DNA from: Nostoc sp. PCC 7120 = FACHB-418
GTDB lineage: Bacteria > Cyanobacteriota > Cyanobacteriia > Cyanobacteriales > Nostocaceae
Assembly (NCBI RefSeq): GCF_000009705.1
Contig: NC_003272.1
Location: forward strand, 1,650,001-1,682,000
Direction: 5' to 3'
Length of the DNA stretch: 32,000 nt
In this document: positions 7,681 to 23,572 of the stretch, piece by piece
How the letters are laid out: every line of letters begins with the position of its first letter
Position numbering within the stretch: position 1 is the first letter of the stretch
Program-made: the position numbers and the translations under genes
The notes under the pieces: generated by a model
Told to the model about the DNA's origin: nothing
Seen by the model: only the letters and a program-made list of their open reading frames with translations
Databases searched by the model: none

Positions 7681-9156
7681 ATGACTTCTGCTACGACCGT
7701 AAAAACTGAGTACGAAGCGATTATCGGTCTAGAAACCCATTGTCAGCTGAGTACGAATACCAAAATTTTCTCTAGTAGCTCAACAGCGTTCGGGGCTGAC
7801 CCTAATACGAACATTGACCCGGTGTGTATGGGCTTACCTGGTGTTTTGCCTGTACTTAACGAAAAAGTCTTAGAATACGCTGTTAAAGCAGGTTTGGCGT
7901 TGAATTGCCAAATTGCTAAATATAGTAAATTTGACCGTAAACAGTATTTTTATCCTGATTTACCGAAAAATTATCAAATTTCTCAATATGACTTACCCAT
8001 AGCTGAACATGGCTGGTTAGAAATTGAGTTATTAGATGCCGATGGTAACCCAAAACGTAAGCGGATAGGGATTACCCGTCTGCACATGGAAGAAGACGCA
8101 GGGAAACTGGTACACGCAGGGAGCGATCGCATCTCTGGTTCTACCTATTCTCTGGTAGACTACAACCGTGCGGGTGTGCCATTGGTAGAAATTGTCTCGG
8201 AACCAGACATCCGCACTGGGCAAGAAGCTGCTGAATATGCCCAAGAATTACGCCGGGTGATGCGTTATCTCGGTGTCAGTGATGGCAATATGCAGGAAGG
8301 TTCTCTGCGCTGTGATGTGAATATATCTGTGCGTCCTGTAGGACAGGAAAAGTTCGGCACGAAGGTAGAAATTAAAAACATGAACTCCTTCAGCGCCATT
8401 CAAAAAGCCATTGAACACGAAATTGAACGGCAAATAGAAGCGATAGAGTCAGGGGAAAAGATTATTCAAGAAACGCGACTGTGGGAAGAAGGTTCACAAC
8501 GCACAATTAGTATGCGAATTAAAGAAGGTTCTAGCGATTATCGCTACTTCCCCGAACCGGATTTAGCACCCATTGAGGTAACAGAAGCACAACTGAGTCA
8601 ATGGCGTAGTGAATTACCAGAACTACCAGCCCAAAAACGCCATCGTTACGAAAACGAATTGGGTTTGTCGGCTTACGATACCCGCGTGCTGACAGAAGAT
8701 GTCATTGTATCTCAATATTTTGAAGTAGCGATCGCATCTGGGGCAAATCCCAAAGCAGCCGCTAACTGGATTACCCAAGATATCGCCGCCTATCTCAACA
8801 AACAAAAACTCAGCATTACAGAAATCGGCTTAACTCCCGCTAACTTAGCCGATGTGATTACCCGGATTGAGACTGGCAAAATTAGCAACGCTCAAGCTAA
8901 ACAAAAGTTACCAGAGTTACTCACGGGATTATCCCCGGAAAAAGCCTTTGCAGGTCAAGAACTCATCAGCGACCCCAGTGTTTTGGAACCCATCGTTGAT
9001 GAAGTGATAGCAGCTAACCCCAAAGAACTGGAAAAGTACCGCAACGGTAACATCAATCTTAAGGGTTTCTTTGTCGGGCAAGTGCTGAAAAAGACAAATA
9101 AACGCGCTGACCCCAAACTCACCAACGAATTGGTAGAAAATAAACTAAATGGCTAA
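7681..9156 (+). CDS. gatB: Asp-tRNA(Asn)/Glu-tRNA(Gln) amidotransferase subunit B
   Basis: YEAIIGLETHCQLSTNTKIF...DPVCMGLPGVLPVLN...KQYFYPDLPKNYQISQ...LRCDVNISVRP...C-terminal GatB/YqeY-like tail. ATG start; length of 491 aa is typical. Confidence 0.97.
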   Translation: MTSATTVKTEYEAIIGLETHCQLSTNTKIFSSSSTAFGADPNTNIDPVCMGLPGVLPVLNEKVLEYAVKAGLALNCQIAKYSKFDRKQYFYPDLPKNYQISQYDLPIAEHGWLEIELLDADGNPKRKRIGITRLHMEEDAGKLVHAGSDRISGSTYSLVDYNRAGVPLVEIVSEPDIRTGQEAAEYAQELRRVMRYLGVSDGNMQEGSLRCDVNISVRPVGQEKFGTKVEIKNMNSFSAIQKAIEHEIERQIEAIESGEKIIQETRLWEEGSQRTISMRIKEGSSDYRYFPEPDLAPIEVTEAQLSQWRSELPELPAQKRHRYENELGLSAYDTRVLTEDVIVSQYFEVAIASGANPKAAANWITQDIAAYLNKQKLSITEIGLTPANLADVITRIETGKISNAQAKQKLPELLTGLSPEKAFAGQELISDPSVLEPIVDEVIAANPKELEKYRNGNINLKGFFVGQVLKKTNKRADPKLTNELVENKLNG

Positions 9157-9408
9157 CACAAGTATTTTGTCAGTCATTTTTTCACAATAGTTTTACATAA
9201 AGTACAAAAAAGTGGGTGTCGATAATTACAACTAAGCGGTTATTATGAATGTATTATATGCACCCTAATAACCAGGAGAGTTACGCAAGTGGCTCTCCTT
9301 ATTTCTTGCCATATCTCCCACTCTTTTTAATTAGTACTAGTTTGTGTAATACTGACGACTACTATGACATGAGGTAAATTCTAGCCTCTAACCCCTAGTC
9401 GCAAAGAG

Positions 9409-12400
9409 ATGTACCCCACTAATACGAGAAACACCATTGGATTAGCCCTTTTGGTAATTGGTTCGGTGATTTTTGCCGGAAACCACGTCCTCGCGGAAAT
9501 AAAAACTGATACCACATTGGGAAGTGAAGCATCCATATTAAACCAAGGCGTTAGTGTTAAAGGGGCGATCGGGGATATTATCGATGGTGGTGCAGTCCGG
9601 GGAACAAAGCTCTTCCATAGCTTTCAAGAATTTAGTATTGGTGAAGGGCAGAGGGTTTACTTCTCCAACCCTGCCGGAATCAAAAACATCCTCACACGCG
9701 TCACGGGGAACAATCGTTCTGATATTTTGGGAACCTTGGGGGTTTTAGGTAATGCCAATTTGTTTCTGATTAATCCCAACGGCATTGTATTTGGACAAAA
9801 TGCCCGATTAGATATAGCAGGTTCCTTTGTAGCCAGTACAGTTGATAGTTTAACGTTGGGTAATGGCTTTGTGTACAGCGCGACCAAACCTGAAATACCG
9901 CCTTTATTAAATATTAATCTCCAACCAGGTTTACAGTTAGGAACAGAAATAGGAACTATTACTAATAGAGGAAATTTGGCAGTAGGGCAGAATCTCATCT
10001 TATCTGCCAACAACCTAGACTTGCAGGGAAGTTTGCAAGCAGGACAAGATTTGACATTAAACGCCAGAAATCAAATTCAGATGCGTGATACCATCGCCAG
10101 TCCGTTGATAGCGGCGGCGAAGGAAAAATTACTGATTCAAGGTAATCAATCGGTAAATATTTTTGCCCTCAATCATCCCGATAGTGGCTTATTTTCGGGT
10201 GGAGATATGATTCTTCGTTCCCTGAGCGACATTGATGGCGATGCCCATTATTGGAGTAGGGGAAATTTTCGCATTGAGAAGTTAGATGGTAATTTGGGGG
10301 GGTTATTTAGTCCCGATGATCCGATAATTAGGTCTAATGGTGATGTTTCCCTGGCGAGCTTTACTGGAGCTTCCCTACACATTCTCGCTGGCGGTAAGGT
10401 AGAAATTCCTGGTAATGTGATAATTTTTCGTCCAGATAACCTCAGCAGTGCGATCGCCGAAACTGTCACCCTATCCGATGGTAACACCGTTAATATTAGT
10501 GGTAGTACTGATTCTACCTTAGACATCCGGGCGGGAATTAATTGGCAGAACCTACCAGGAAATAGCAGCTTGGGACAGCTTTCTTCTCTACCCAGCTTCA
10601 ACAATGCCACAAGTGCCGACATTAATCTTGGCAATATCAGGGTTTTTGATTTTGTTGGAGGTCAGGGCGGGAAGATCTTCTTAACTAATCAATATCAAGC
10701 TAATCCTACTCTAAGCGGAAATATTCGAGTCAACATCATTGATGCCAGAGATTCATTCCAAGGGACTTCCCTATTTATGAACTCGCGCGGTAATATCGCC
10801 GTCAACATCGCCGACACATCTTCCTTTAGGCAAGGTAATGGTGGCGACATCACTATGATCGCTCAGGGTAATATCAGCCCTCAATTGCTACTTTCCAGGG
10901 GCTGGTTGGGTGGTAACATCACACTCAAGAGTAATGCCAATATTTCGGTAGCAACCGGTTTTATTAGCAGTCAAAGCAGGGCTAATACTGAGACAGGTTC
11001 CCCTCTGACTGGAGGTGATATTGAGATTACAGCCGATTCCCTCTTTTTAACTAATGGGGCAAACATCACTGTCATCAATGAAAACATCTCTAATGGTGGC
11101 AATTTAAAAATTACTGCCAACAATATTTTTCTAGAAGGTGTTCCCAGTAATGGATCTGCTGGGGGCATAACTAGCCAGGTTTGGCCAGGAAGTATCGGTA
11201 AAGGGGGCGATATCCAGATTACCACAGGCAAACTCTCAGCAGAAAAAGGCTCTCAGGTAATCGCTATTACTTTTGGTGCAGGGAAAGCAGGAAACGTCAC
11301 CATCCACGCGAGCGATCGCATTTTCTTGAGTGGTATAAGTAATACAGGTATTCCCGGTGGTGTAGCCAGTCGCTCTCAAGACTCAGGTGCTGGAGGAAAT
11401 GTGAATATTACCACGCGATCGCTGACGATTGAGAATTCTGCTCGTGTCAGTACCGCTACTACGGGCAGAGGAACAAGCGGTAATGTGATGATTAATGCCA
11501 GTGATGCAATTGTTCTTGATGGTTATGATACAGCAATTATTAGTCAAGCCTTTCCTGATACCACAGCAGGTGGTAATATTAATGTAACTACAGGTAAATT
11601 GTCTCTATTCAATGGTGCTGCTATCAGTAGCGGCACTAGAGGTATAGGCAATGCAGGTAACATTCAAATCATTGCAGATATGTTTATAGCCGATGGGGTT
11701 AGCCCCATCACTGGCTTTGCTAGTGGAATTACTGCGGCAACGGATGACAACGCTCAAGGCAATGGTGGCAACATTGACATTATTAGCCGGATTATTGCTT
11801 TAACTAATGGTGGGCAAATTACAACTAGCACCGATGCCAGAGGTAACGCTGGTAACATCAAAATTACAACTAATGCGATAAACATTGATGGCTCTAGCCC
11901 ACTGCGAGAAAATTTTCCTAGTGGTATTCTCAGCCTAGTCAGAGCTAATGCTCAAGGTACAGGCGGTAATATTGACATCAATACGGGTCAAATGACATTA
12001 ACTAACGGTGGTTTTTTAGATGCCAGTACTTTTGGACAAGGAAATGCAGGGGATATAAAAATTATTGCCAATGATGCAATGATATTGAACTCAGGAAATA
12101 ACAGTAACGTATCCGGTGATATTAGTAGTCAGGTTTTATCAGGAGCCGTAGGTGATGGGGGTGATATTGAGATCTTTGCTCATAAACTGTTGCTGAGTAA
12201 TGGCTTTCAAATTAAAGCTCAAACATTTGGACAGGGAAATGCAGGTAATATCAAAATAAACACCATTGATTCAGTAGTGCTGAATGGTAGTAGTCCTCGG
12301 ACAAACTCTACAGGTATATTTACTTCTGTTGGCAATGGGGGATTTGGTACTGGTGGTAATATTGATATCCAAACAGGCAAACTAACCCTTGATAATCGAT

Positions 12401-13251
12401 CTATTATCTCTGCGGAAACAGTAAGCAATACTGGTGGTGATATTCGCCTGCAACTCAATGACAGACTGTTACTCAGGCGCAACAGTAGAATTTCCACGAC
12501 TGCGGGAACTGCCCAGGCTGGTGGTGATGGCGGTAACATTATCATTAACACCCCATTTTTGCTGACTGCCCCTCTAGAAAATAACGACATCACCGCCAAC
12601 GCCTTTAGTGGTAGTGGCGGGAAAATAGATATTACAACTCAAGGTATATTAGGCTTTACACCCCGTACTCGTGCAGACTTAGAGGCATCACTAGGAACTA
12701 AAGACCCCAGCCAATTAAATCCGCGATCGCTCCCCACAAGCGATATCACAGCCATTTCCCAAGCTAACGCCTCCTTGGATGGACAGGTAACAATTGACAC
12801 CCCTGATGTAGACCCTGGTAGCGGACTTGTGGCATTACCCACCAATGTAGTGGATGCGTCCCGACTCATTGCCCAAACCTGTCGCAGTGGAGGGGAAACA
12901 ACCGCCAGCCAACAAAGTGAATTTGTCATCACCGGACGAGGAGGTTTACCGCCTAAGCCTAGCGACCCCCTAAGTAGTGATGCCATCTGGCAAGACTTAC
13001 AGCCCTACGCCTTACCCGATGAAAAAGCTGGGGAGCAGGAAGAGAAGTCGCAAGGAGGGTTTCCCTCCGGGCGAACTTCCCTACGGGATGCTACGCGAAT
13101 GGGAGCAAGGGAGCAAGGGGAAAAATCACCCACACCCATAGTTGAAGCCCAAGGCTGGGTAACTAGTACGGATGGTAAGATTACCCTGGTAGCTCAAGCA
13201 CCCACAACAACACCTCATAATTCTTCATTCACGCCAGTTAGTTGTTCTTAA
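9409..13251 (+). CDS. Filamentous-hemagglutinin-type (TPS/haemagg_act N-terminal domain) beta-helical exoprotein
   Basis: Signal peptide MYPTNTRNTIGLALLVIGSVIFAGNHVLA|E. TPS domain: GGAVRGTKLFHSFQEFSIGEGQRVYFSNPAGIKNILTRVTGNNRSDILGTLGVLGNANLFLINPNGIVFGQNARLDIAGSFVAST. This is followed by many degenerate repeats of the type GxGNAGNIxIxxxxxxxLxG / GGNIDIxTGxLxLxNG. Confidence 0.9.
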   Translation: MYPTNTRNTIGLALLVIGSVIFAGNHVLAEIKTDTTLGSEASILNQGVSVKGAIGDIIDGGAVRGTKLFHSFQEFSIGEGQRVYFSNPAGIKNILTRVTGNNRSDILGTLGVLGNANLFLINPNGIVFGQNARLDIAGSFVASTVDSLTLGNGFVYSATKPEIPPLLNINLQPGLQLGTEIGTITNRGNLAVGQNLILSANNLDLQGSLQAGQDLTLNARNQIQMRDTIASPLIAAAKEKLLIQGNQSVNIFALNHPDSGLFSGGDMILRSLSDIDGDAHYWSRGNFRIEKLDGNLGGLFSPDDPIIRSNGDVSLASFTGASLHILAGGKVEIPGNVIIFRPDNLSSAIAETVTLSDGNTVNISGSTDSTLDIRAGINWQNLPGNSSLGQLSSLPSFNNATSADINLGNIRVFDFVGGQGGKIFLTNQYQANPTLSGNIRVNIIDARDSFQGTSLFMNSRGNIAVNIADTSSFRQGNGGDITMIAQGNISPQLLLSRGWLGGNITLKSNANISVATGFISSQSRANTETGSPLTGGDIEITADSLFLTNGANITVINENISNGGNLKITANNIFLEGVPSNGSAGGITSQVWPGSIGKGGDIQITTGKLSAEKGSQVIAITFGAGKAGNVTIHASDRIFLSGISNTGIPGGVASRSQDSGAGGNVNITTRSLTIENSARVSTATTGRGTSGNVMINASDAIVLDGYDTAIISQAFPDTTAGGNINVTTGKLSLFNGAAISSGTRGIGNAGNIQIIADMFIADGVSPITGFASGITAATDDNAQGNGGNIDIISRIIALTNGGQITTSTDARGNAGNIKITTNAINIDGSSPLRENFPSGILSLVRANAQGTGGNIDINTGQMTLTNGGFLDASTFGQGNAGDIKIIANDAMILNSGNNSNVSGDISSQVLSGAVGDGGDIEIFAHKLLLSNGFQIKAQTFGQGNAGNIKINTIDSVVLNGSSPRTNSTGIFTSVGNGGFGTGGNIDIQTGKLTLDNRSIISAETVSNTGGDIRLQLNDRLLLRRNSRISTTAGTAQAGGDGGNIIINTPFLLTAPLENNDITANAFSGSGGKIDITTQGILGFTPRTRADLEASLGTKDPSQLNPRSLPTSDITAISQANASLDGQVTIDTPDVDPGSGLVALPTNVVDASRLIAQTCRSGGETTASQQSEFVITGRGGLPPKPSDPLSSDAIWQDLQPYALPDEKAGEQEEKSQGGFPSGRTSLRDATRMGAREQGEKSPTPIVEAQGWVTSTDGKITLVAQAPTTTPHNSSFTPVSCS
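13029..13120. repeat. Small dispersed repeat embedded in-frame in the 3' part of the TPS-exoprotein gene
   Basis: GGGAGCAGGAAGAG...GGAGGGTTTCCCTCC (hairpin, 13054-13068)...CCCTACGGGATGCTACGCGAA (13079-13099)...GGGAGCAAGGGAGCAAGGGG. It translates as the low-complexity stretch GEQEEKSQGGFPSGRTSLRDATRMGAREQGEK. A related motif in inverse orientation is at 28392-28416. Confidence 0.45.
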
Positions 13252-13254
13252 GTA

Positions 13255-13290
13255 GGGGTTTAGGGGTTTAGGGGTGTGGGGGTGTAGGGG
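13255..13290 (+). repeat. G-tract array (five G4-5 runs) starting 4 nt after the stop codon; potential G-quadruplex
   Basis: GGGGTTTAGGGGTTTAGGGGTGTGGGGGTGTAGGGG, with G runs at 13255-58, 13263-66, 13271-74, 13278-82 and 13287-90 and loops of 3-4 nt. Confidence 0.6.
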
Positions 13291-13303
13291 AAAGACTTAA
13301 TTT

Positions 13304-13354
13304 ATTTTGAATTTTGAATTTTGAATTTTGAATTGTCAACTTTGAATTGTCAAC
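13304..13354 (+). repeat. Tandem repeats: heptamer ATTTTGA x4, then 14-mer TTTGAATTGTCAAC x2 (STRR-like)
   Basis: Four perfect ATTTTGA units span 13304-13331. TTTGAATTGTCAAC is at 13327-13340 and 13341-13354, ending 4 nt before the CHAT gene ATG (13359). Confidence 0.8.
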
Positions 13355-13358
13355 ATTT

Positions 13359-15893
13359 ATGCGGCGAGTTTTTACTTTTCTGCTTTGTGCCTTACTAGGT
13401 ATGGGCTTTACTCTTATACCCCAATGGCATCAAGTCCAAGCTTCAATTTCTCAATCATCCCCACTCCCCACTCCCCAGTTAATTCAACAAGGCAGAGAAC
13501 TATACCAAGCAGAACAATATACTCAAGCTGTGGATGTTTGGCGAGCTGCACTTAAAGCAGAAACCAATATATTGTCCCAGGCAATGTTGTTAAATTACCT
13601 TTCCCTGGCTTATCAAGAATTGGGACAGTGGCAACAGGCAAATGAGACAATTAACTCTAGCCTCAACCTCATACAACAATCAAAACAGACAACTCCACAA
13701 GCCAAGCTTATCCTCGCCCAAGCTCTTAATACTCAAGGAAGTTGGCAGCTAGCGCAAGGTAAAGCCGAACAAGCCCTCAACACTTGGCAACAGGCAACAG
13801 CCATATATACTACAGCAGGAAATGTACAGGGTAAAATTGGCAGCTTAATTAATCAAGCCCAAGCTCAACAAGCTTTAGGGCTTTACCTCCAAGCTCGTAA
13901 AACTCTAGCTGGAGTGGAACAAGGACTACAACAACAGCCAAATCAAAAATTGCAAATTACAGGGCTGCGTAGTCTGGGAAATATCTTCAGATTGGTAGGC
14001 GCTCTAGACGATTCTCGGAGGGTTTTGCAGCAAAGTTTGCAGATAATTAATCAAGGCAATGTATCAAAATCAGAACTAAGTCCAACCTTAATCAGCTTGG
14101 GTAATACAGCTGATGCCCAAGGCGACAAAGAAGGGGCATTAACATATTATGAACAAGCGGCGGCGAATGCGACTGTTACCTTAACGCAGATTCAAGCACA
14201 AATCAATCAACTGAACATATTAATAACAACTGGACAAGCCAAGCAAGCTGAAAATCTAGGGAAACAAATTCAGCCCAAGTTGACTAATTTATCTCCCAGC
14301 CGTCAGACGATTTACGCCAGCATTAACTTGGCAAAAAGTCTGATGAAATTGACTGGTGAGGGAGTAGACGAATCTGCTAAACTACTAGCCACAGCCATTA
14401 AACAAGCCCAAAACTTGAGCGATCGCCAAGCTGAATCTTATGCTTTAGGCTATCTCGCTGGACTCTATGAACAAACTCAACAGTGGTCAAACGCTCAAGA
14501 ATTAACTCAACAGGCTTTGCAACTAGCACAAGCTATTAATGCCCCAGAAATAGCCTATCAGTGGCAATGGCAATTAGGACGTATCTTAAAAGCACAAGGC
14601 GCAATCAAGCCAGCAACATCCGCCTATGAGGTAGCCTTCACCACCTTGAAATCTCTGCGGAGTGATTTGGTAGCAATTAACAGTGATATTCAATTTTCTT
14701 TTCGTGAAGCCGTCGAGCCTGTATATCGTGAATATGTAGAATTACTATTGAATCCAGGCAAAAGCTTAGAACCCAGTCAGCAACAACTCAAACAAGCTAG
14801 GCAAGTCATCGAATCACTACAACTAGCCGAACTTGACAACTTTTTTCGCTCTGCTTGTCTCCAAGGTCAAATAGTTCCAATTGAGCAGATTCAACAGTCA
14901 GAAGCCGCAATCATTTATCCGATTATTCTGCCAGATAGACTGGAAGTAATTGTCAGTTTACCCCAGCAGACCCTACGCCACTACGCCACCAAAATAAGTC
15001 AACACGAAGTAGAAGAAGTTCTAGACCAACTCAGACAAAATTTAGAAAAGCCTTTCACCTCACCAGAGGGTAAGAATTTATCTACGAAAGTTTATGACTG
15101 GTTGATTCGACCTCTAGAAACACAACTGTCTCAAACTCAAGTGCAAACATTAGTGTTCGTCTTAGATGGTTCCCTACGGAACGTGCCAATGGCGGCTTTA
15201 TTTGACGGCAAACAGTATTTAATTGAAAAATACAGTGTGGCACTCACACCTGGGTTAGAGTTATTAGGCCCCCGGCCTTTGCGCCAAGGTCAACTCAAAA
15301 CCTTAGTTGCAGGACTGACAGAAGCACGCCACGGATTTAATTCCCTCCCCAATGTGGGTGATGAATTAAAAGCAATTGAGTCAGAAGTGCCTAGTCAAGT
15401 CCTCTTGAATCAAACCTTTACCAGTGCAGCCTTACGAAAGCAGATAGACTCTCTACCGTTTTCCATCGTGCATTTAGCAACACATGGTCAATTTAGTTCC
15501 AATGTTGATGAAACTTTTGTCCTGGCTTGGGATAAACCAGTCAAAGTTAATGAATTAAAAGACTTACTGTATAACAGAAACCAAAATAGACCTGAGCCGA
15601 TAGAATTACTTGTTCTCAGTGCTTGTGAAACCGCCGACGGAGACAAAAGAGCCGCTTTAGGATTAGCTGGGGTAGCCATTCAAGCAGGCGCGCGCAGTAC
15701 TCTAGCCTCCCTTTGGAGTTTAGACGATGAATCTGGCGCTCGTCTCATTGGTCAATTTTATAAAGAGTTAGCAACTAAACAAGTGACAAAGGCAGAAGCA
15801 CTGCGCCAAGCCCAAATCTCCCTATTAAAAGACCCCGATTACAGGCATCCTATACATTGGGCATCCTATGTATTATTGGGAAATTGGCTTTAA
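13359..15893 (+). CDS. Secreted TPR-repeat CHAT-domain (caspase-like) protease
   Basis: The track start 13347 is TTG. The ATG at 13359 gives the signal peptide MRRVFTFLLCALLGMGFTLIPQWHQVQA|S. The N-terminal ~450 aa are TPR-like (repeated Q/A/L-rich helical units, e.g. AMLLNYLSLAYQELGQWQQA). The C-terminal CHAT domain has the His/Cys dyad context IVHLATHGQF and LLVLSACETADGD, and ends HPIHWASYVLLGNWL. Confidence 0.9.
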   Translation: MRRVFTFLLCALLGMGFTLIPQWHQVQASISQSSPLPTPQLIQQGRELYQAEQYTQAVDVWRAALKAETNILSQAMLLNYLSLAYQELGQWQQANETINSSLNLIQQSKQTTPQAKLILAQALNTQGSWQLAQGKAEQALNTWQQATAIYTTAGNVQGKIGSLINQAQAQQALGLYLQARKTLAGVEQGLQQQPNQKLQITGLRSLGNIFRLVGALDDSRRVLQQSLQIINQGNVSKSELSPTLISLGNTADAQGDKEGALTYYEQAAANATVTLTQIQAQINQLNILITTGQAKQAENLGKQIQPKLTNLSPSRQTIYASINLAKSLMKLTGEGVDESAKLLATAIKQAQNLSDRQAESYALGYLAGLYEQTQQWSNAQELTQQALQLAQAINAPEIAYQWQWQLGRILKAQGAIKPATSAYEVAFTTLKSLRSDLVAINSDIQFSFREAVEPVYREYVELLLNPGKSLEPSQQQLKQARQVIESLQLAELDNFFRSACLQGQIVPIEQIQQSEAAIIYPIILPDRLEVIVSLPQQTLRHYATKISQHEVEEVLDQLRQNLEKPFTSPEGKNLSTKVYDWLIRPLETQLSQTQVQTLVFVLDGSLRNVPMAALFDGKQYLIEKYSVALTPGLELLGPRPLRQGQLKTLVAGLTEARHGFNSLPNVGDELKAIESEVPSQVLLNQTFTSAALRKQIDSLPFSIVHLATHGQFSSNVDETFVLAWDKPVKVNELKDLLYNRNQNRPEPIELLVLSACETADGDKRAALGLAGVAIQAGARSTLASLWSLDDESGARLIGQFYKELATKQVTKAEALRQAQISLLKDPDYRHPIHWASYVLLGNWL

Positions 15894-15997
15894 GTGCGAT
15901 CGCTATTAGACAATTAAAAAAATTTATCAGGCAGTGACTACAATGACGCTAAATTCTTATGACGAAGCAGCTCTTAGAGTCAACTTGATAGCCCCTG

Positions 15998-16271
15998 ATG
16001 AAATTAGCCGATCTCCTCAAAGACTCAAATTATAAGCATTTCTCAACCAGATTGAGCCAATTTGTTAATTCCAATTTTACCAAAACTTCAACAGCAAAAG
16101 TTTGTTGAAAAGATAAATTCATCATTTTCATTAAAACTAAAATCCAAACAACTGCTAGAAATTGCTAAAACAGGAGTAGAACAGGCGATAGAAACTGATG
16201 AAGCAACAGCAACCCATTGGATAAACCAGCAACTTGAAGCATTAGGCATCACCCTAACTGCTACCATTTAA
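15998..16271 (+). pseudogene. hsdS: 3'-terminal relic of a type I restriction-modification specificity subunit gene (hsdS), frameshifted
   Basis: ORF 16062..16271 reads LLIPILPKLQQQKFVEKINSSFSLKLKSKQLLEIAKTGVEQAIETDEATATHWINQQLEALGI. This resembles the conserved IP(L/I)PPLxEQxxIV...coiled-coil...AKxAVExAIE C-terminus of HsdS. An adjacent frame upstream (MKLADLLKDSNYKHFSTRLSQF) would join it through a 1-nt frameshift near 16058. There is no target-recognition domain and no hsdM or hsdR nearby. Tail copy A is at 16155-16247. Confidence 0.5.
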
Positions 16272-16288
16272 ACAATCTGGGAATAATC

Positions 16289-16531
16289 ATGAAAGCACTT
16301 AAAGTTATGGCAACGATTAACGACCAGGGACAACTAACTTTAGATCATCCGCTTTTAACTGATAAAAATAGCCGAGTAGAAGTCATTGTGCTAATCCCTG
16401 AAGAAGAAGAAATTCTGGATGATCAATCTCAAGCAGAAGTCTTAGCAGATTTCCGGCAAGCTTGGCAAGAAGCCATGACTGGGCAGACTATCCCGGTGGC
16501 TCAACTTTGGGAAGGTCTTGAAGATGCTTGA
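16289..16531 (+). CDS. Type II antitoxin-like protein (80 aa)
   Basis: MKALKVMATINDQGQLTLDHPLLTDKNSRVEVIVLIPEEEE...LADFRQAWQEAMTGQTIPVAQLWEGLEDA. It is small and acidic. Its stop overlaps the ATG of the downstream RelE/ParE-like reading frame (GATGCTTGA), the typical TA operon layout. Confidence 0.7.
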   Translation: MKALKVMATINDQGQLTLDHPLLTDKNSRVEVIVLIPEEEEILDDQSQAEVLADFRQAWQEAMTGQTIPVAQLWEGLEDA

Positions 16532-16898
16532 TCAGCCTTTGATTTAAGTTGAAGCTTCGCCAACGTTTAAACGAAATATACGCACTCTTGCTAAGAAATA
16601 TCGCAGTATTCGGAATGACATACAACCTGTTATCGAACAACTTGAGCAAGGAGAATTGCCAGGAGATCAAATACCTGGGATTGGTTATACAGTCTTCAAG
16701 TTGAGAGTCCGAAATAGTGACACTCAAAAAGGTAAAAGCGGTGGCTATCGTTTAATTTACTACGTCAAAACAGCAACAGGAATCATTTTGCTGACCGTTT
16801 ACACAAAATCTGAACAAGTCGATATTGCCGCAGATGACATTCAGAGCATCATTGCAGACTATGAGCAACGGACGCTTACCGAGCAAGACAATAGCTAG
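16524..16898 (+). pseudogene. RelE/ParE-superfamily toxin gene interrupted by an in-frame TAA at codon 8
   Basis: ATG 16524 reads MLDQPLI, then TAA (16545-16547). The same frame continues VEASPTFKRNIRTLAKKYRSIRNDIQPVIEQLEQGELPGDQIPGIGYTVFKLRVRNSDTQKGKSGGYRLIYYVKTATGIILLTVYTKSEQVDI... The track ORF 16656..16898 (TTG) is only the C-terminal two thirds. Confidence 0.7.
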
Positions 16899-16987
16899 AA
16901 ACGGCTAAAACAGCAGTAGAACGAGCGATAGAGATGGATAAAGCGATCGCCATAACTTGGATAAACCAGCAACTAAAAGCCTTGGAG
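16895..16987 (+). repeat. hsdS-tail repeat, copy B
   Basis: An ungapped alignment with copy A (16155-16245) gives about 70/91 identical positions by hand count. It still reads LETAKTAVERAIEMDKAIAITWINQQLKALEVNRS* without stops. It starts on the toxin stop codon, and its own stop overlaps the Uma2 ATG (ATGA). Confidence 0.65.
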
Positions 16988-16998
16988 GTCAACCGATC

Positions 16999-17580
16999 AT
17001 GATTGCTCAACCTGAGACTAAGCGTTACACCATTGATGAGTATTTAGAACTGGAAATCGCTTCAGAAATACGCAACGAATATTGTGATGGAGAAATTATT
17101 CCTATGACTGGTGGGACACCCAACCACAACGATATTGCTGGAAATTTGTATATTTTGCTGAAATCTGCCCTAAAAAGCAAAAACTACCGGATTTTCTATG
17201 TCGATCAGCGACTCTGGATTCCCGATGCAAATCTCTATACTTACCCTGATGTAATGGTTTTGCCCAAACCCTTAGAACTTCAAACCGGATGCAAAGATAC
17301 TGTGCTAAACCCTTGCTTTATTGCTGAAGTCTTGTCTAAGTCCACCCAAAACTATGACCGTGGTGAGAAATTTGTTGCCTATCGTCAAATTCCTATCTTC
17401 CAAGAATATCTGCTGATTGATCAATACCGGATACACGTTGAGCATCATATTAAAACAGCCCCTAATCAGTGGCTATTTTCAGAATACGACGACCCCACTG
17501 TCACCCTTTCTTTAAGCACCTTTGAGTTGCAAATTCAAATTGCCGAACTTTACGAAAATATCGATTTTTCCAACGTTTGA
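16999..17580 (+). CDS. Uma2-family (DUF820, PD-(D/E)xK-like) endonuclease
   Basis: MIAQPETKRYTIDEYLELEIASEIRNEYCDGEIIPMTGGTPNHNDIAGNLY...YVDQRLWIP...YTYPDVMVL...NPCFIAEVLSKST...YDRGEKFVAYRQIPIFQEYLLIDQ. This is the classic Uma2 pattern, abundant in cyanobacteria. The track start 16957 is a TTG inside repeat copy B; the ATG at 16999 is preferred. Confidence 0.9.
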   Translation: MIAQPETKRYTIDEYLELEIASEIRNEYCDGEIIPMTGGTPNHNDIAGNLYILLKSALKSKNYRIFYVDQRLWIPDANLYTYPDVMVLPKPLELQTGCKDTVLNPCFIAEVLSKSTQNYDRGEKFVAYRQIPIFQEYLLIDQYRIHVEHHIKTAPNQWLFSEYDDPTVTLSLSTFELQIQIAELYENIDFSNV

Positions 17581-17833: not shown

Positions 17834-19582
17834 ATGCCTACATATACTGGTGATAATAACAAAAATATTTTCACAGCACCTAATGACGGTCTAGCCTGGA
17901 CAATCTCCGGCATGGGAGGAGATGACATCCTAACTGGTGGAAGTCAAAATGACACGATTGAAGGTGGCGAAGGTAAAGATACCATCAATGGTGGCGCTGG
18001 TTTTGATATCCTCAAAGGCGGTGATGGTGATGACACCTTGATTGATACTGAGGGTAATATCGATGGCGGTGCAGGTACTGATACTCTCCGGGCAGACTAC
18101 AGCAAGTATGACAATGGTGCTGGTGTTCATGTCGGTTATTTAGGACAAGCTCAGATTTTCAGTCGCCAAACTGGTACTGGCATACTTGGTTACAGCAATA
18201 TTGAAAAGTTTGAGATTACCGGGACAAAATACGCAGATATTCTTCAAGGCGGCGTTGGCAATGACGTTCTCAAAGGTGGAGCCGGCAATGATGAACTGAG
18301 TGGTGGTGCTGGTAATGACACCCTTGATGGTGGCACTGGTTTTGATATCCTCAAAGGTGGTGATGGTGATGATACCTTGATTGATACTGAGGGTAATATC
18401 GATGGCGGTGCAGGTACTGATACTCTCCGGGCAGACTACAGCAGGTATGACAATGGTGCTGGTGTTCACGTCGGTTATTTAGGACAAGCTCAAATTTTCA
18501 GTCGCTTGACTGGTACTGGCATACTTGGTTACAGCAATATTGAAAAGTTTGAGATTACTGGGACAAATTACGCAGATATCCTCCAAGGCGGTAGTGGCAA
18601 TGACATCCTCAAAGGTGGAGCCGGCAATGATGAACTGAGTGGTAAAGGTGGTAACGATACTCTTGATGGTGGCTTTGGCTATGACACCGTTGTTTATGAC
18701 GGTAATTATGCAGATTATGGTATCTCTTTCCTGAGCAATGGTGATTTGCAAGTCATTGACAAGAACCTCACCAATGGAAATGACGGTACTGACACCATCA
18801 GGGGTGTAGAAGTCATCAACTTTAGACAAGGCGGAAGTTATGGAGTGGTCACAGGTACTACAGGTAATGATGTATTGACCGCATCAAATATGTGGTCATT
18901 CGTCTTCGGTGGTGGCGGTAACGACATTATTACTGGTGGGACTGGCAACGATACCTTGGATGGTAGTACTGGCAATGATACGTTGATTGGTGGCGCTGGC
19001 AATGATACGTTGATTGGTGGTGCTGGTGTTGATACTGCCGTTTATGCGGGAAATTATGCAGATTATGGTATCTCTTTCCTGAGCAATGGTGATTTGCAAG
19101 TCATTGACAAGAACCTCACCAATGGAAATGACGGTACTGACATCCTCAAGGGTGTAGAAGTCATCAACTTTACACAAGGCGGAAGTTATGGAGTGGTCAC
19201 AGGTACTACTGGTAATAATGTATTGACCGCATCAAATATGTGGTCATTTGTCTTCGGTGGTAATGGTAACGACACTATTACTGGCGGCACTGGCAATGAT
19301 ACTTTAGTCGGAGGGCTTGGTGCTGATACCCTCACAGGTGGACTTGGGGCTGATAAATTTGTCTTTAACTCTCTTTCTGAAGGAATTGATGTGATCAAAG
19401 ACTTTTCTTGGCAACAAGGAGATAAGATTCAAATTCTCGGCTCTAGTTTTGGTGCAACTTCCACTAGTCAGTTCAGCTTTGACCAGAATACAGGTGGTTT
19501 ATTCTTTAACGCCCAGCAATTTGCCACTCTTGAGAACAAACCTGCTGGTTTCTTGACAAATGCTGACATCCAAATTGTTTAG
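17834..19582 (+). CDS. RTX-type (hemolysin-type) calcium-binding repeat protein; probable type I secretion substrate
   Basis: ATG preceded by AGGAG (17821-17825). Many GGxGxDxL nonapeptide repeats (GGAGNDELSGGAGNDTLDGG). No N-terminal signal peptide. The C-terminal non-repeat tail is DKFVFNSLSEGIDVIKDFSWQQGDKIQIL...GGLFFNAQQFATLEN. Confidence 0.9.
   Translation: MPTYTGDNNKNIFTAPNDGLAWTISGMGGDDILTGGSQNDTIEGGEGKDTINGGAGFDILKGGDGDDTLIDTEGNIDGGAGTDTLRADYSKYDNGAGVHVGYLGQAQIFSRQTGTGILGYSNIEKFEITGTKYADILQGGVGNDVLKGGAGNDELSGGAGNDTLDGGTGFDILKGGDGDDTLIDTEGNIDGGAGTDTLRADYSRYDNGAGVHVGYLGQAQIFSRLTGTGILGYSNIEKFEITGTNYADILQGGSGNDILKGGAGNDELSGKGGNDTLDGGFGYDTVVYDGNYADYGISFLSNGDLQVIDKNLTNGNDGTDTIRGVEVINFRQGGSYGVVTGTTGNDVLTASNMWSFVFGGGGNDIITGGTGNDTLDGSTGNDTLIGGAGNDTLIGGAGVDTAVYAGNYADYGISFLSNGDLQVIDKNLTNGNDGTDILKGVEVINFTQGGSYGVVTGTTGNNVLTASNMWSFVFGGNGNDTITGGTGNDTLVGGLGADTLTGGLGADKFVFNSLSEGIDVIKDFSWQQGDKIQILGSSFGATSTSQFSFDQNTGGLFFNAQQFATLENKPAGFLTNADIQIV
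17990..18667 (+). repeat. Intragenic tandem duplication, 2 x 339 bp (113 aa)
   Basis: GGAGFDILKGGDGDDTLIDTEGNIDGGAGTDTLRADYSKYDNGAGVHVGYLGQAQIFSRQTGTGILGYSNIEKFEITGT... is repeated starting at 18329. I count 8 of 113 amino-acid differences; the nucleotide copies are near-identical over long runs. Confidence 0.9.
18683..19378 (+). repeat. Intragenic tandem duplication, 2 x 348 bp (116 aa)
   Basis: DTVVYDGNYADYGISFLSNGDLQVIDKNLTNGNDGTDTIRGVEVINFRQGGSYGVVTGTTGNDVLTASNMWSFVFGG... is repeated from 19031. The core (18704-18905 versus 19052-19253) is almost identical at the nucleotide level. Confidence 0.9.
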
Positions 19583-19646: not shown

Positions 19647-20067
19647 ATAAACAAAATGAAGAATTTGGTTTTTTAAGTGCCAAAATTATAAGATAGTTAT
19701 AGTGACTGGGGATACAGAAAATTTATTTATAGTCCTGTCTACTGTATATTCCAGGGTAGCTGAGTACAGCTTAATATATCGCAAAATATATGGCTCAAAT
19801 CGTATCAAAGTCTTACATATTAAGTTATTTGTAGCGAGTACAAAAATTCTGAACCCCTCGTCTAAAAATACTAGTCCCCTGCACACAAAATACTAGTACC
19901 TATATCCCAAGAGAATTTTTAAGTTTATTGCAATTCTGGTTTGTAGCGGTTGAGTACAAGCTTAATTAATCCAATAAATCCAATCGGCATTTAATGTACT
20001 GTCTGCTTTGGAGCAATCTGATATAAGCAGAAAAATAACACACGGCTCTTTTAACCAGATAGTACTG

Positions 20068-20820
20068 ATGCAACAGTCCTTAGACGGTATCGAGAATCCA
20101 CCTGATTCGACACATACATCCTTGGTGAAAAATCTACTCTCTGGCATTTTTCTAGAGCCATTGTTGAGTGATTTTCAGATTATTTTTGAACGCGACCCGG
20201 CGGCGCGTAATTGGTTGGAGGTAATATTCTGTTACCCCGGACTGCACGCGATTTGTTTGCACCGTTTTGCTCATTGGTTACACCGCCGTGGGGTGGTTTT
20301 CTTCCCACGTTTAATTTCTCACTTGGCTAGGTTTCTCACAGGAATTGAGATTCACCCAGGTGCAGTGATTGGTAAAGGTGTGTTTATCGACCACGGGATG
20401 GGCGTTGTCATTGGTGAAACGGCGATTGTGGGAGATTATGCCCTAATTTATCAAGGGGTGACTCTGGGCGGTACTGGGAAGGAAAGTGGTAAGCGTCATC
20501 CCACCGTCGGGAATCATGTGGTTGTGGGTTCGGGGGCGAAGGTTTTGGGGAATATTCAAATTGGCGATCGCGCGCGGATTGGCGCAGGTTCGGTTGTGTT
20601 GCGTGATGTTCCCCATGATTGCACAGTTGTGGGCATTCCTGGGCGGATTATCACCCACAAGCCTAAGACTGATCTCTCTCCTCTGGAACACGGAAAGTTA
20701 CCTGATGTGGAAGCAGATGTGATTCGTTCTTTGCTGACACGCATCGAACAACTGGAACAAAAACTGCAAACCCTGACAAATCAGGCAAAGGAACCAGAAC
20801 TGTTGACGAAAGATAAGTAA
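20068..20820 (+). CDS. cysE: Serine O-acetyltransferase
   Basis: [37 protein letters not shown]...[70 protein letters not shown] (hexapeptide repeats). The track start 20008 is TTG; the first ATG is at 20068. Confidence 0.9.
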
Positions 20821-20822
20821 TT

Positions 20823-21062
20823 ATGTTACCACCTTGTAGTTCTCAAGTGTTGCAGATACCATTGTGCGATCGCTGGCAGATTTATCACCGATTGCAAGAG
20901 TTGATGATACCCTGTTCCTGTCATGCCGATGGTTCGTTACGGGTGCAAATAAATAGTTGGCTGACTGCAATTTTAGTCCGCAGTACTGTGATGCAATTTC
21001 TAGCTCCTCGTCAAGAATTAATAGACTGGCTAGAGCGTTGCTGGCATTGCAACCATGATTAG
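20823..21062 (+). CDS. Small Cys-containing cyanobacterial protein (Asr1405/Asl0597-family-like)
   Basis: MLPPCSSQVLQIPLCDRWQIYHRLQELMIPCSCHADGSLRVQINSWLTAILVRSTVMQFLAPRQELIDWLERCW matches my recollection of this family. ATG starts 3 nt after the cysE stop. Preferred over the overlapping antisense ORF 20821..21084. Confidence 0.7.
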   Translation: MLPPCSSQVLQIPLCDRWQIYHRLQELMIPCSCHADGSLRVQINSWLTAILVRSTVMQFLAPRQELIDWLERCWHCNHD

Positions 21063-21258
21063 CAAAAGTCATATATTTTTTCATCTATTCTAAAATATTT
21101 AATCAATCGAGTCTCAGGACTAAATTATGATGCAACGATGATTTTTACGAATACACATCAAATAATTGTCCTGAAACCATTGATTATGGAAAAATACAGT
21201 TCACCAAAAACTACAGCTTTATGATTTCCAAAATTTCCTTCATTAGCTATTTGAATAT

Positions 21259-21462
21259 ATGATGATCACCACTGACAGCAAAGATATAGAATTACTCAAT
21301 TTTTTATATAATGAACTTGAGCTATCTGAGAAGGATATGGCTTTGGCATTGAAGCACCGGGAGTTTGATAATGGGCCTCTACCAATGCTCCTCTGGCAAT
21401 ATGGGTTAGTAAACTTAGAGCAGTTAGAGCAAATTCTAGATTGGTTATATAACGAAATTTAG
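21259..21462 (+). CDS. DUF2949-like small cyanobacterial protein
   Basis: LLNFLYNELELSEKDMALALKHREFDNGPLPMLLWQYGLVNLEQLEQILDWLY; the core LPMxLWQYGLVxLEQLxxIxDWL is characteristic of this family. Confidence 0.75.
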   Translation: MMITTDSKDIELLNFLYNELELSEKDMALALKHREFDNGPLPMLLWQYGLVNLEQLEQILDWLYNEI

Positions 21463-21877
21463 ATATATTTTTTCTGGAAAGTAATATATTTATCAACCTT
21501 AAATAGTATTTAATAGTATTTATTTATAAATATAAAGTGGCAGAAAGATTTTTCCAAGATTCAGGAAATATTGTAGATTTTCTGCATACTTGCTAACAAC
21601 TAGGGTGAGCATTCATTAATTATGAAGATTCGCGTACTTTTTCCAAATTTATTCTTAAATGATACATGAATTTAGTTCTCTGTCATACAGATATATTGTT
21701 ATTGTTTAGCTAATATTTAGAAATCATGAAGATGAATTATTAAAGACGAGAGTTTATAGCATTTACCATTCTTCCTGCAAGGTGAAAAACAGGGATTTAT
21801 CACTACTAGTGATTGCAGAAAAACAAACTCTCAACCTAAAAAGAATATTAAGAAAATTCCTAAGAGGGACGCTTGAG

Positions 21878-23011: not shown

Positions 23012-23285
23012 AAACGAGTTAGAGTCAGAACCCGTTTATGAGATTGGCGAAAAAGTCCGGCTTCGTAAACAAATTAAAAATGATGGCACATTTCCAGGCA
23101 GAGACCTTGGGGAAATCTTAGCGAAAAAAGGAGAAATTGGTTACGTATCTAGTATAGGTACTTTCTTACAACGTTCCTATATTTATGCCGTGCATTTCTT
23201 GGAAAAAGGAATCATTGTTGGTTGTCGAGAAAAAGAACTAGAATCTGCCGAGGAAAACCATGAAAGTGATGTTAAGAGTGAATGA
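22998..23285 (+). CDS. nifZ: Nitrogenase maturation protein NifZ
   Basis: PVYEIGEKVRLRKQIKNDGTFPGRDLGEILAKKGEIGYVSSIGTFLQRSYIYAVHF is the NifZ signature. The ATG overlaps the nifV 3' end by 14 nt. Confidence 0.9.
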   Translation: MQRDENELESEPVYEIGEKVRLRKQIKNDGTFPGRDLGEILAKKGEIGYVSSIGTFLQRSYIYAVHFLEKGIIVGCREKELESAEENHESDVKSE

Positions 23286-23463
23286 TGCCGGTAACTTAAC
23301 GGTCTACGTTCCTAAAAAAGATTTAGAAGAAGTAGTAGTCAAACAAACAGATGGTGCTGGAGGTAAAATTCTGACTCTAGCTAATGGTTGGGAATTAGAA
23401 TTTCGGGAAATACCAGATGTAGCTAATTTACCCAAAACATTAGAAGCTAAAAAACTGGAATAA
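23260..23463 (+). CDS. nifT: NifT/FixU protein
   Basis: MKVMLRVNDAGNLTVYVPKKDLEEVVV...GGKILTLANGWELEF is the NifT/FixU pattern. It overlaps the nifZ 3' end by 26 nt. Confidence 0.9.
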   Translation: MKVMLRVNDAGNLTVYVPKKDLEEVVVKQTDGAGGKILTLANGWELEFREIPDVANLPKTLEAKKLE

Positions 23464-23496
23464 ATAATTCGTGATTTTTTCAGCCACATGAAAATC

Positions 23497-23531: not shown

Positions 23532-23572
23532 TAGCTCAACCCTGCTCGCAATTCTATTTTGAGTAACTAAAA

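Follow-up and report, generated by a model that had tools for sequence, protein, structure and literature searches.

Two-partner secretion (TPS, type Vb secretion) is treated as a two-protein pathway, in which the exoprotein (TpsA) has a cognate Omp85-type transporter (TpsB, with POTRA_2 and ShlB domains) that is usually encoded next to it; to our knowledge, accessory proteases that mature TpsA proteins are known in a few pathogens only, and these are serine proteases encoded elsewhere. In Bordetella, proteases remove the C-terminal region of the TpsA protein FhaB, which remains in the periplasm, and so yield the mature or released protein (PMC4542190, PMC8263021, PMC6070651). Among CHAT proteins, the periplasmic TPR-CHAT domain of Myxococcus xanthus DdvA has been solved, and the reported distribution of DdvA comprises Myxococcota and one Comamonas species (PMC11506125). 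Here we analyse a window of 32,000 nucleotides from Nostoc sp. PCC 7120 (contig NC_003272.1, positions 1,650,001 to 1,682,000), in which alr1397 (positions 9409..13251 of the window, + strand; BAB73354, 1280 aa), the gene of a TpsA-type exoprotein identified by Pfam, TIGR01901 and protein identity, is followed by alr1398 (13359..15893, + strand; BAB73355, 844 aa), which encodes a predicted exported TPR-CHAT protein identified by the Pfam CHAT and TPR families and by AlphaFold2 (AF2). The gene names alr1397 and alr1398 are presumed because the two accession numbers are consecutive; identical proteins are also present in Anabaena sp. FACHB-709. Judged by genome comparison, an envelope module that is widespread has alr1397 and alr1398 as its core of two genes, and the window holds an ordinary, reduced member of it.

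A single scan of Genome Taxonomy Database (GTDB) representative genomes with an alignment of the CHAT protein gave 579 relatives; the best 80 loci among them, all cyanobacterial and with 48-79% identity, were analysed by calling open reading frames (ORFs), clustering them and naming them with Pfam. A TPS-family gene lies within 10 kb of the CHAT gene in 64 of these 80 loci, which cover many cyanobacterial orders, and it is usually directly upstream on the same strand. Where at least 1.5 kb of upstream sequence was present (72 CHAT genes), 39 have a same-strand TPS gene that ends no more than 500 bp upstream, and 51 have one that ends no more than 3.5 kb upstream; up to four TPS genes stand ahead of one CHAT gene (locus L079). 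The pair moves as a unit, because the flanks differ between close relatives: gatB is the neighbour in the window, and other genes are found in Nostoc NIES-3756, where the gene order is TPS-CHAT-RTX. Four cyanobacterial plasmids were sampled from the TPS side, and CHAT adjoins TPS in three of them. Outside the cyanobacteria, Caballeronia grimmiae and Paraburkholderia PGU19 carry an operon in which a TPR-CHAT gene (with signal peptide) is followed by ShlB and TPS genes, and tblastn found CHAT proteins 84-86% identical in two strains of Burkholderia and in another Caballeronia strain. The surroundings of the CHAT genes on plasmids of Pseudosulfitobacter, Shinella, Flammeovirga, Chondrinema and Azospirillum are unrelated; hence only a subset of CHAT proteins, and not the whole family, has the TPS link.

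These comparisons support the view that TPS and CHAT genes form a real and strongly conserved functional pair. An earlier reading of the window, made from the letters alone without database searches (hereafter the sequence-only reading), had proposed such a pairing, and the neighbourhood counts bear out a co-occurrence beyond chance. Cyanobacterial genomes hold many CHAT and TPS paralogues, which could bring the two together without functional meaning; coincidence is nevertheless effectively refuted, and in our judgement scarcely credible, given a link that spans many cyanobacterial orders, recurs in Burkholderiaceae in a different gene order, and persists while the flanks of the pair change. 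The module is widespread and conserved across phyla, and its gene products are routinely annotated by family name. We consider it very likely that a TPS protein and an extracytoplasmic CHAT protein make up a conserved functional module that is served by a TpsB in trans.

alr1398 matches the Pfam CHAT family (PF12770) with E=9e-59 (199.7 bits, for a cut-off of 24) at aa 574-842 (nt 15078-15884), covering profile positions 3-289 of 289, and has further Pfam matches to TPR_12 and TPR_MalT. The AF2 model, built with 38 sequences, contains ~20 confident TPR helices at aa 38-435 (nt 13470-14663; predicted local distance difference test (pLDDT) ~90). The predicted catalytic residues, His709 of HLATHGQF (codon 15483..15485, + strand) and Cys756 of LSACET (codon 15624..15626, + strand), occupy invariant columns in three alignments, which hold 12, 38 and 49 relatives and reach down to ~53% identity, and their spacing of 47 residues is similar to that of H862 and C907 in DdvA. 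On these grounds we assign alr1398 to the CHAT family, with a predicted peptidase dyad. The ORF would encode 848 aa if a TTG at 13347 were used; the ATG at 13359 gives the 844 aa of the annotated BAB73355, and exactly 107 nt separate the TPS stop codon from this ATG. Hence the description of an 844-aa TPR-CHAT protein with an intact His/Cys dyad, encoded 107 nt downstream on the same strand, holds throughout. More than 6000 homologues of alr1398 were found, with orthologues at 60-84% identity.

The N-terminus of alr1398 consists of MRR, a hydrophobic stretch of ~18 residues and VQA|S, giving a predicted signal peptide or anchor at aa 1 to ~28, and the protein has no other hydrophobic segment; here and for alr1397, signal peptides were judged heuristically, by hydrophobicity and charge. 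The N-terminal hydrophobic segment is kept in 78 of 81 CHAT relatives, 78 lack any other transmembrane-like segment, and the Burkholderiaceae relatives likewise begin with signal-like segments. A sole hydrophobic segment at the N-terminus, together with the positive-inside rule, predicts that the bulk of alr1398 lies outside the cytoplasmic membrane, either cleaved or anchored; we therefore predict an extracytoplasmic protein with its TPR-CHAT part in the periplasm, in agreement with the sequence-only reading. It could be argued instead that the CHAT protein is cytoplasmic or faces inward, like HetF, that the hydrophobic stretch is no export signal, and that adjacency to TPS reflects co-regulation only: the signal prediction is heuristic, the hydrophobic region is long (~17-19 aa) and might be an uncleaved anchor, and HetF and all2170 are described as intracellular regulators (PMC10811720). 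We regard this alternative as very improbable. The MRR ahead of the segment places the bulk of the protein outside by the positive-inside rule whether or not cleavage occurs, the segment is conserved in the 78 of 81 relatives and in the Burkholderiaceae proteins, and the other conserved partners are envelope proteins (TpsA, TpsB, DUF928 with its signal peptide and the periplasmic CHASE2 domain). The statement of the sequence-only reading that characterised CHAT proteases are all intracellular is outdated, as DdvA is periplasmic (PMC11506125).

alr1397 matches the Pfam TPS family (PF05860) with E=1.2e-51 at aa 29-289 (nt 9493-10275; profile positions 1-252 of 252) and TIGR01901 (adhes_NPXG) with E=4e-25, and it carries the motifs NPAG at aa 87 and NPNG at aa 122. 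Its sole hydrophobic segment (aa 8-29) comes after Arg7 and is followed by VLA|E, giving a predicted signal peptide at aa 1-29; the earlier identification of a 1280-aa TPS protein with a Sec signal is thereby upheld. The protein has the sequence hallmarks of a TpsA except an adjacent TpsB, and the Gly/Asn-rich repeats of its body match no Pfam repeat family. Among the 82 TPS proteins of the related loci, the TPS domain and the last ~250 residues are conserved and the body is variable.

The conserved C-terminal module of alr1397 (aa 1027-1280; 12487..13248, + strand), delimited by conservation over the 82 TPS proteins and by AF2, has a distinctive layout. In an AF2 model of the last 254 aa, aa 1027-1136 are beta-rich and would form the last coils of the beta-helix (pLDDT 83-91); a disordered linker at ~aa 1154-1238 holds Cys1158 (nt 12880-12882) and the motif F.xTGRGGLPP.P; and a short beta-hairpin (EAQGW...LVA, aa 1249-1261) precedes a disordered tail with Cys1279 (nt 13243-13245). 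Cys1158 and Cys1279 are the only Cys residues of alr1397. Exactly two Cys residues past the signal peptide are found in 72 of the 82 TPS proteins; in these, both are C-terminal, separated by 71-121 residues, with the last one 1-9 residues short of the end of the protein. No Pfam family covers the module, and a homology search with it gave no matches but cyanobacterial fragments, which carry the annotation exoprotein or S-layer protein and are without Pfam domains.

The constancy of this C-terminus bears on whether the locus is a CdiA-like system for contact-dependent inhibition (CDI), in which a toxin at the C-terminus would be delivered by the TPS protein, with the CHAT protein as an activator or an immunity factor. 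TPS proteins with polymorphic C-terminal toxins are common, and caspase-like releasing peptidases occur among such systems (PMC3482391). A constant C-terminus on a variable body is, however, the reverse of CdiA; the VENN motif is absent from 101 TPS ORFs; the next gene encodes the 844-aa CHAT protein, and a small immunity-like gene is absent; and Pfam shows no toxin family and PADLOC is negative. With no VENN motif and a constant C-terminus, we rejected the CDI interpretation, which we rate as extremely unlikely.

The C-terminal module also varies in step with the CHAT protein. In a co-variation test, in which distance matrices of parts of the TPS proteins were compared with those of the CHAT protein for 38 adjacent pairs, the TPS C-terminal module correlated with the TPR part (r=0.83) and the catalytic part (r=0.81) of the CHAT protein, whereas the correlation with CHAT was r=0.55 for the TPS N-terminus and r=0.44 for the middle; the module correlated with its own N-terminus at r=0.60 only. 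This co-variation fits a C-terminal tail that co-evolves with the protease.

The best overall explanation, which we hold with about an even chance of being right, is that the TPR-CHAT protein processes the tail of TpsA in an envelope module. alr1397 would be exported by Sec, its TPS domain would be passed to a TpsB outer-membrane channel encoded elsewhere, and its variable beta-helix would fold at the cell surface; the constant C-terminal module would stay periplasmic, with the two Cys bracketing the ~100-aa disordered linker, followed by the beta-hairpin. alr1398 would be exported or anchored through its own N-terminal signal, its TPR superhelix would bind the alr1397 tail, and the CHAT domain with His709 and Cys756 would cut the tail, so that the exoprotein is matured or released; in complete modules, the cut might also create or remove a periplasmic signal that is read by the DUF928/CHASE2 arm. 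We infer periplasmic retention of the tail, its binding by the TPR part, its cleavage and the link to CHASE2. That the C-terminal tail of TpsA is the CHAT substrate is a tentative proposal, somewhat more likely to be wrong than right. A dedicated accessory role for CHAT is suggested by the TpsB genes that lie between TPS and CHAT, by the Burkholderiaceae triad and by the several TPS genes that share one CHAT gene. The protease-substrate module of the sequence-only reading thus stands as a conserved pair; its maturation or release of the exoprotein is inferred, with the two-Cys disordered module that co-varies with CHAT as circumstantial evidence.

In proposing tail processing for alr1397, we take FhaB as the precedent, with a periplasmic prodomain removed by proteases (PMC4542190, PMC8263021, PMC6070651). 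Like FhaB, alr1397 is a TpsA with an N-terminal TPS domain and a predicted Sec signal, and its body is predicted to be a beta-helical passenger like that of FhaB. They differ in several respects: the Bordetella processing proteases SphB1, DegP and CtpA are serine proteases, are not encoded adjacent to fhaB and do not have the TPR-CHAT architecture; fhaC lies near fhaB, whereas the TpsB of alr1397 would act in trans; no similarity was found between the FhaB prodomain and the alr1397 C-terminal module (two Cys, TGRGGLPP, EAQGW hairpin; no Pfam family); and cleavage is known for FhaB, whereas it is predicted for alr1397. Haemophilus HMW1, whose extreme C-terminal pair of conserved Cys residues stays on the periplasmic side of HMW1B and anchors the adhesin, provides a lead only, as its Cys residues are a few residues apart and it has no protease partner, whereas those of the TPS module are 71-121 residues apart.

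A different use of the same proteins, as a periplasmic holdase or quality-control device, would have the TPR array chaperone unfolded TpsA and the protease destroy stalled or mis-targeted copies, with no maturation cut. A single CHAT gene for up to four upstream TPS paralogues would suit this arrangement, the queueing of substrates in the periplasm is plausible because TpsB would be shared in trans, the TPR region is long and highly conserved, and FhaB is a target of chaperones and proteases in the periplasm, DegP among them. However, the conserved motifs and the Cys pair are placed specifically at the TPS C-terminus, which argues for a defined recognition site and not for general binding of unfolded chains; this alternative also gives no reason for the linkage to DUF928 and CHASE2, and we consider it improbable.

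No POTRA/ShlB protein or relic was found in the 32-kb window by Pfam on large ORFs, by tblastn with three cyanobacterial TpsB proteins or by a TpsB hidden Markov model (HMM) run on the six-frame translation; a 536-aa ORF at 25011-26621, considered as a possible TpsB, was rejected as an MscS channel. The sequence-only reading was right that the window lacks a TpsB but treated this as an anomaly, when absence is the rule in cyanobacteria: of the 80 loci, no more than 7 encode a ShlB/POTRA_2 protein, which in six of them is placed between TPS and CHAT and in the seventh (L074) directly upstream of CHAT on a contig that shows no TPS gene. Orthologues of the TpsB subfamily occur at 70-77% identity throughout Nostoc, and in Nostoc ATCC 53789 and Calothrix NIES-2100 the TpsB gene is a solitary one, surrounded by housekeeping genes and without a TpsA or CHAT gene in the vicinity (L088 10001-11797 and L090 10001-11785). 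As TpsB is present in cis in so few loci and stands alone in Nostocales, its absence beside alr1397 is expected. On plasmids the genes are found together, as ShlB-CHASE2-TPS-CHAT-DUF928 on one strand in Pseudanabaena, TPS-x-ShlB-CHAT-DUF928-CHASE2 in Planktothrix and TPS-ShlB-CHAT in Fischerella. For PCC 7120, a published supplement reports two TpsB-like proteins, whose TpsA substrates include alr1906 (PMC10811720). alr1397 is likely to be served by a TpsB in trans, and the simplest reading of these distributions is that one or two hub TpsB channels serve many chromosomal TpsA proteins in trans, and mobile copies bring their own. In Nostoc ATCC 53789, the TpsB gene is preceded by that of a 617-aa protein with a weak SWIM zinc-finger match and followed by that of an FHA-GAF-GGDEF-EAL protein.

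The sequence-only reading identified the pair and missed a larger module (DUF928, CHASE2, DUF1822, a sigma-like protein and sometimes TpsB). DUF928 is encoded in 51 of the 80 loci, a CHASE2 membrane protein in 47, DUF1822 in 22 and a Sigma70_r4 protein in 16; among the 44 loci of at least 20 kb, TPS is present in 38, DUF928 in 33, CHASE2 in 30 and all three in 23. The typical order, with strands, is [TPS]n+ CHAT+ DUF928- CHASE2- DUF1822- sigma-, and the five closest orthologous loci (L007, L009, L010, L013 and L015) have the whole set. In full, the module comprises one or more TpsA proteins, in some cases a TpsB, the exported TPR-CHAT protease, DUF928 and a CHASE2 sensor, with DUF1822 and a sigma-like protein added in Nostocales. 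The Nostocales CHASE2 protein (~780 aa) has an N-terminal caspase-like domain and transmembrane segments that flank the CHASE2 domain; in the caspase-like domain, which is cytoplasmic (e.g. L013 18351-20687, - strand), His234 is conserved in 90% and Cys276 in 77% of sequences. Two Cys residues of the periplasmic CHASE2 domain (positions 500 and 552 of 778 aa) are conserved in 87-90% of 30 sequences, which suggests that they form a disulfide. Outside Nostocales, the output domains of the CHASE2 proteins are adenylate/guanylate cyclases or histidine kinases. DUF928 proteins carry a signal peptide, and the DUF1822 and sigma-like proteins have no transmembrane segment. After its signal peptide, DUF928 (e.g. 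L013 17487-18269, - strand) bears the motif PP..G.P..T.GG(A/G)SRG..C; its loose likeness to the TGRGGLPP of the TPS tail could reflect a shared recognition site or be a coincidence.

Part of this module has been described before. Caspase-CHASE2, DUF1822 and a sigma factor of the extracytoplasmic function (ECF) type were reported computationally as the EACC2-caspase-CHASE2 set (Kaur et al. 2021, eLife, PMC8195603), and the same set lies a few kb downstream of TPS-CHAT in L007, L009, L010, L013 and L015. The model of that paper is one of intracellular caspase autoprocessing and not of a periplasmic protease; in a text search of it, TPS/hemagglutinin and DUF928 went unmentioned, and the string 'CHAT' was matched only within an author name (PMC8195603). 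Elsewhere, a Sphingobium plasmid (L093 5544-16600) encodes in succession a CHAT protein (1028 aa), a CHASE2 adenylate/guanylate cyclase, a 238-aa protein, a ShlB-type TpsB, a 493-aa protein and a large protein of more than 640 aa, which has no Pfam match and no recognisable TPS domain in its available part; the CHAT-CHASE2-TpsB link thus recurs outside the cyanobacteria, in an alphaproteobacterium.

The frequency of these genes raises a serious, though less probable, alternative, namely that CHAT acts mainly in trans-envelope signalling, that its partner or substrate is DUF928 or the CHASE2 receptor and not the TpsA tail, and that TpsA is an antenna or a regulated output; the pair in the window would then be an orphan, either in cross-talk with DUF928/CHASE2 sets at other places or on the way to losing its function. 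DUF928 and CHASE2 are jointly present in 44 of the 80 loci, several loci (e.g. L024, L053, L058, L060, L063 and L086) have CHAT with DUF928/CHASE2 and no TPS, and Sphingobium has CHAT-CHASE2-x-ShlB. The outputs of the CHASE2 partners vary (caspase-like domain, adenylate/guanylate cyclase, histidine kinase), DUF928 combines a signal peptide with an N-terminal GG(A/G)SRG motif, DUF1822 and sigma70_r4 genes follow in Nostocales as in the EACC2-caspase-CHASE2 arrangement (PMC8195603), and DdvA sets the example of a periplasmic TPR-CHAT protein that acts in sigma-factor signalling (PMC11506125). Against this, TPS is the tightest and most frequent neighbour (38, compared with 30 for CHASE2, of the 44 large loci); the Burkholderiaceae CHAT-TpsB-TpsA operons have no CHASE2 among the features annotated within 8 kb on either side; the copies in the window and in NIES-3756 keep TPS-CHAT without DUF928 and CHASE2; and the TPS C-terminal module co-varies with CHAT. 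The signalling alternative overlaps with our best explanation, processing of the TpsA tail. A speculative reading, which we think unlikely, makes the full module a proteolytic signalling relay that crosses the entire cell envelope: a surface-exposed TpsA would be the antenna and sense phage, neighbouring cells or stress at the surface, the periplasmic TPR-CHAT would cut the TpsA tail or DUF928, the product would be the CHASE2 ligand, and a cytoplasmic output would switch gene expression. In such a relay, the Nostocales output would be the second caspase-like domain acting on DUF1822 and the sigma factor, and elsewhere the cyclase or histidine kinase; the whole would be a bacterial two-caspase cascade in periplasm and cytoplasm, with the copy in the window as a branch that lacks the receptor and releases TpsA by means of the same protease.

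Several observations weigh against processing of the TpsA tail by an exported caspase-fold protease. As to linkage, 16 of the 80 loci have no TPS gene within reach, and some of these carry only DUF928/CHASE2, which fits a sensor-centred role of CHAT; six of the 16 are contigs of 13 kb or less, which are also without DUF928 and CHASE2. As to the fold, the AF2 model of the CHAT domain is of low confidence (pLDDT below 50 for most of aa 630-790) and sequence profiles found no solved CHAT structure: full-length searches matched only TPR proteins, CHAT alone matched nothing, and a profile of 49 CHAT sequences gave only noise. The caspase fold of alr1398 therefore rests on the Pfam match and the dyad. 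Foldseek with the alr1398 model returned mainly TPR proteins and also DdvA, separase and type III-E TPR-CHAT at TM-scores of ~0.2; because the TPR part of the model is good and the CHAT part poor, TPR proteins dominate this ranking, and we did not use it as proof of fold. As to the tail, the co-variation could equally stem from physical linkage, with the TPS 3' end abutting CHAT and breakpoints falling within TPS, and the TPS N-terminal alignments are noisier, with uncertain ORF starts. The two-Cys module is not exclusive to CHAT-linked genes, since a TpsA of Nostoc TCL26-01 has it with no CHAT within 7 kb; and, if the tail is the substrate, its recognition is not universal, since the Burkholderiaceae TpsA partners have a different C-terminus. 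Finally, the copy in the window, which is without DUF928, CHASE2 and TpsB, could be a decaying remnant. HMMs run on the six-frame translation of the window found no relics of DUF928, CHASE2, DUF1822, sigma or 'c12' family genes, and only TPS, CHAT and an orthologous RTX protein are retained.

Other CHAT systems differ from alr1398 in architecture or context. DdvA likewise has a TPR superhelix ahead of a CHAT domain that contains a His-Cys dyad, and it shares the periplasmic location, which is predicted for alr1398; however, it has a cytoplasmic zinc-binding anti-sigma domain and a transmembrane helix before TPR-CHAT, where alr1398 has only MRR, and it pairs with the ECF sigma factor DdvS and controls CBASS/CRISPR genes without a TPS partner (PMC11506125). 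We rejected alr1398 as a DdvA-type anti-sigma factor, given that it has no cytoplasmic domain and that the window has no sigma gene. Csx29 of the type III-E craspase likewise joins TPR to a CHAT domain with a His/Cys dyad (Foldseek matches 7xc7_D and 7y84_C), but it resides in the cytoplasm in complex with gRAMP/Cas7-11 and is activated by RNA, whereas alr1398 has an export signal; no CRISPR genes were found in the window or among the recurrent families of related loci, and the craspase assignment was rejected for its lack of CRISPR context and the presence of the export signal. A defence-system assignment was also rejected: PADLOC was negative for the TPS, CHAT, caspase-CHASE2, DUF928, DUF1822 and sigma proteins, apart from a generic TPR match.

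HetF and all2170 are members of the same family (PF12770) in the same organism, but have other architectures and contexts and no TPS neighbour; mutants of all2170 and hetF affect heterocyst development (PMC10811720). For alr1398, we found no link to heterocyst development beyond its chance position near nifV/Z/T. In the supplement to that study, mutation of all2170 gave a hetF-like phenotype, and the TpsA paralogue alr1906 carries a point mutation in a phage-resistant substrain that grows more poorly without combined nitrogen (PMC10811720). Neither gene is one of the pair in the window, but the alr1906 and all2170 mutants hint that both families are important to PCC 7120, for its cell surface and its development.

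The open-access literature that we searched holds nothing that joins a CHAT domain with TPS, ShlB or POTRA, nor a paper that names alr1397, alr1398 or alr1403, though subscription papers may exist; DUF928 and DUF1822 have few mentions there. The sequence-only reading knew of no experimental characterisation, and likewise no open-access paper on alr1397, alr1398 or the TPS-CHAT link was found. A TpsA with a dedicated exported protease of predicted caspase fold, often accompanied by TpsB, DUF928 and CHASE2, was not found as a combination in the open literature that we searched. Here, a protease of predicted caspase fold with its own export signal is genetically tied to TpsA in many cyanobacterial orders and in Burkholderiaceae. 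If its CHAT domain does process the tail, type Vb secretion would gain a third dedicated partner, and TpsA tails would be the first substrate class assigned to an extracytoplasmic CHAT protease. We know of no identified ligand of the CHASE2 sensor domain, and the tie of TPS-CHAT to DUF928 and CHASE2 offers a concrete and genetically tractable place to seek one; PCC 7120 and Nostoc punctiforme are transformable. The window itself holds a typical reduced copy of a common module, with its absent TpsB explained; the interest lies in the module as a whole, in CHASE2 sensing and in extracytoplasmic CHAT proteases.

The surroundings of the pair point to a two-gene transcription unit. gatB lies upstream of the TPS gene (7681-9156, by Pfam), as the sequence-only reading had it, and a consensus scan found a terminator-like hairpin with a T-run between the two (9274..9299, + strand; a pattern match only), which is probably the upstream boundary of the TPS-CHAT transcription unit. 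The intergenic spacer (13252..13358, 107 nt, no strand assigned) consists mostly of short tandem repeats: GTAGGGGT x4.9, ATTTTGA x6.4 and the 14-mer TTTGAATTGTCAAC x3. The same scan found no terminator-like site between the TPS and CHAT genes; with the hairpin after gatB, this makes co-transcription of the two genes plausible, as far as pattern matches go. The spacer repeats resemble the short tandemly repeated sequences of Nostocales, and further heptamer/octamer repeats lie just within both genes (13101-13119 and 13458-13477).

Downstream, alr1403 (17834..19582, + strand; 582 aa, Pfam HemolysinCabind) encodes an RTX calcium-binding repeat protein, which falls in a 90%-identity cluster with BAB73360, annotated as alr1403 with 556 aa. 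Orthologues with 52-54% identity over the full length lie directly downstream of CHAT in the closest loci (L008-L013; L087 12658-15696), and RTX proteins are encoded near CHAT in 20 of the 80 related loci. We regard alr1403 as a gene that accompanies the pair by synteny in these loci, with uncertain functional membership in the module; the module may have a type I secretion substrate as an additional companion. Between the CHAT and RTX genes (15894-17580) lie a 69-aa ORF, an 80-aa ORF, an 80-aa RelE-like fragment (Pfam RelE, E=5e-6, 27.3 bits, barely over the 27-bit cut-off) and a Uma2 nuclease. As the RTX gene directly follows CHAT in L008, L011, L013 and NIES-3756, this interval looks like inserted toxin-antitoxin and nuclease debris. 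The hsdS relic that the sequence-only reading placed downstream corresponds to the 69-aa ORF (16062-16271), which has no Pfam match, and the assignment was not confirmed.

In other Nostoc strains, DUF928, CHASE2, DUF1822 and sigma genes occupy the place downstream of the TPS-CHAT pair and RTX gene. In PCC 7120, the pair borders a nif-associated region, with genes at 20008-24139 for a hexapeptide acetyltransferase (cysE-like), nifV (HMGL-like and HCS_D2), nifZ, nifT and a 2Fe-2S thioredoxin-like ferredoxin. At the other end of the window, 1490-4321 encodes a 943-aa PEP-CTERM integral membrane protein of the TIGR02921 family (1829 bits) with a VIT domain, which belongs to the exosortase system and is unrelated to the pair.

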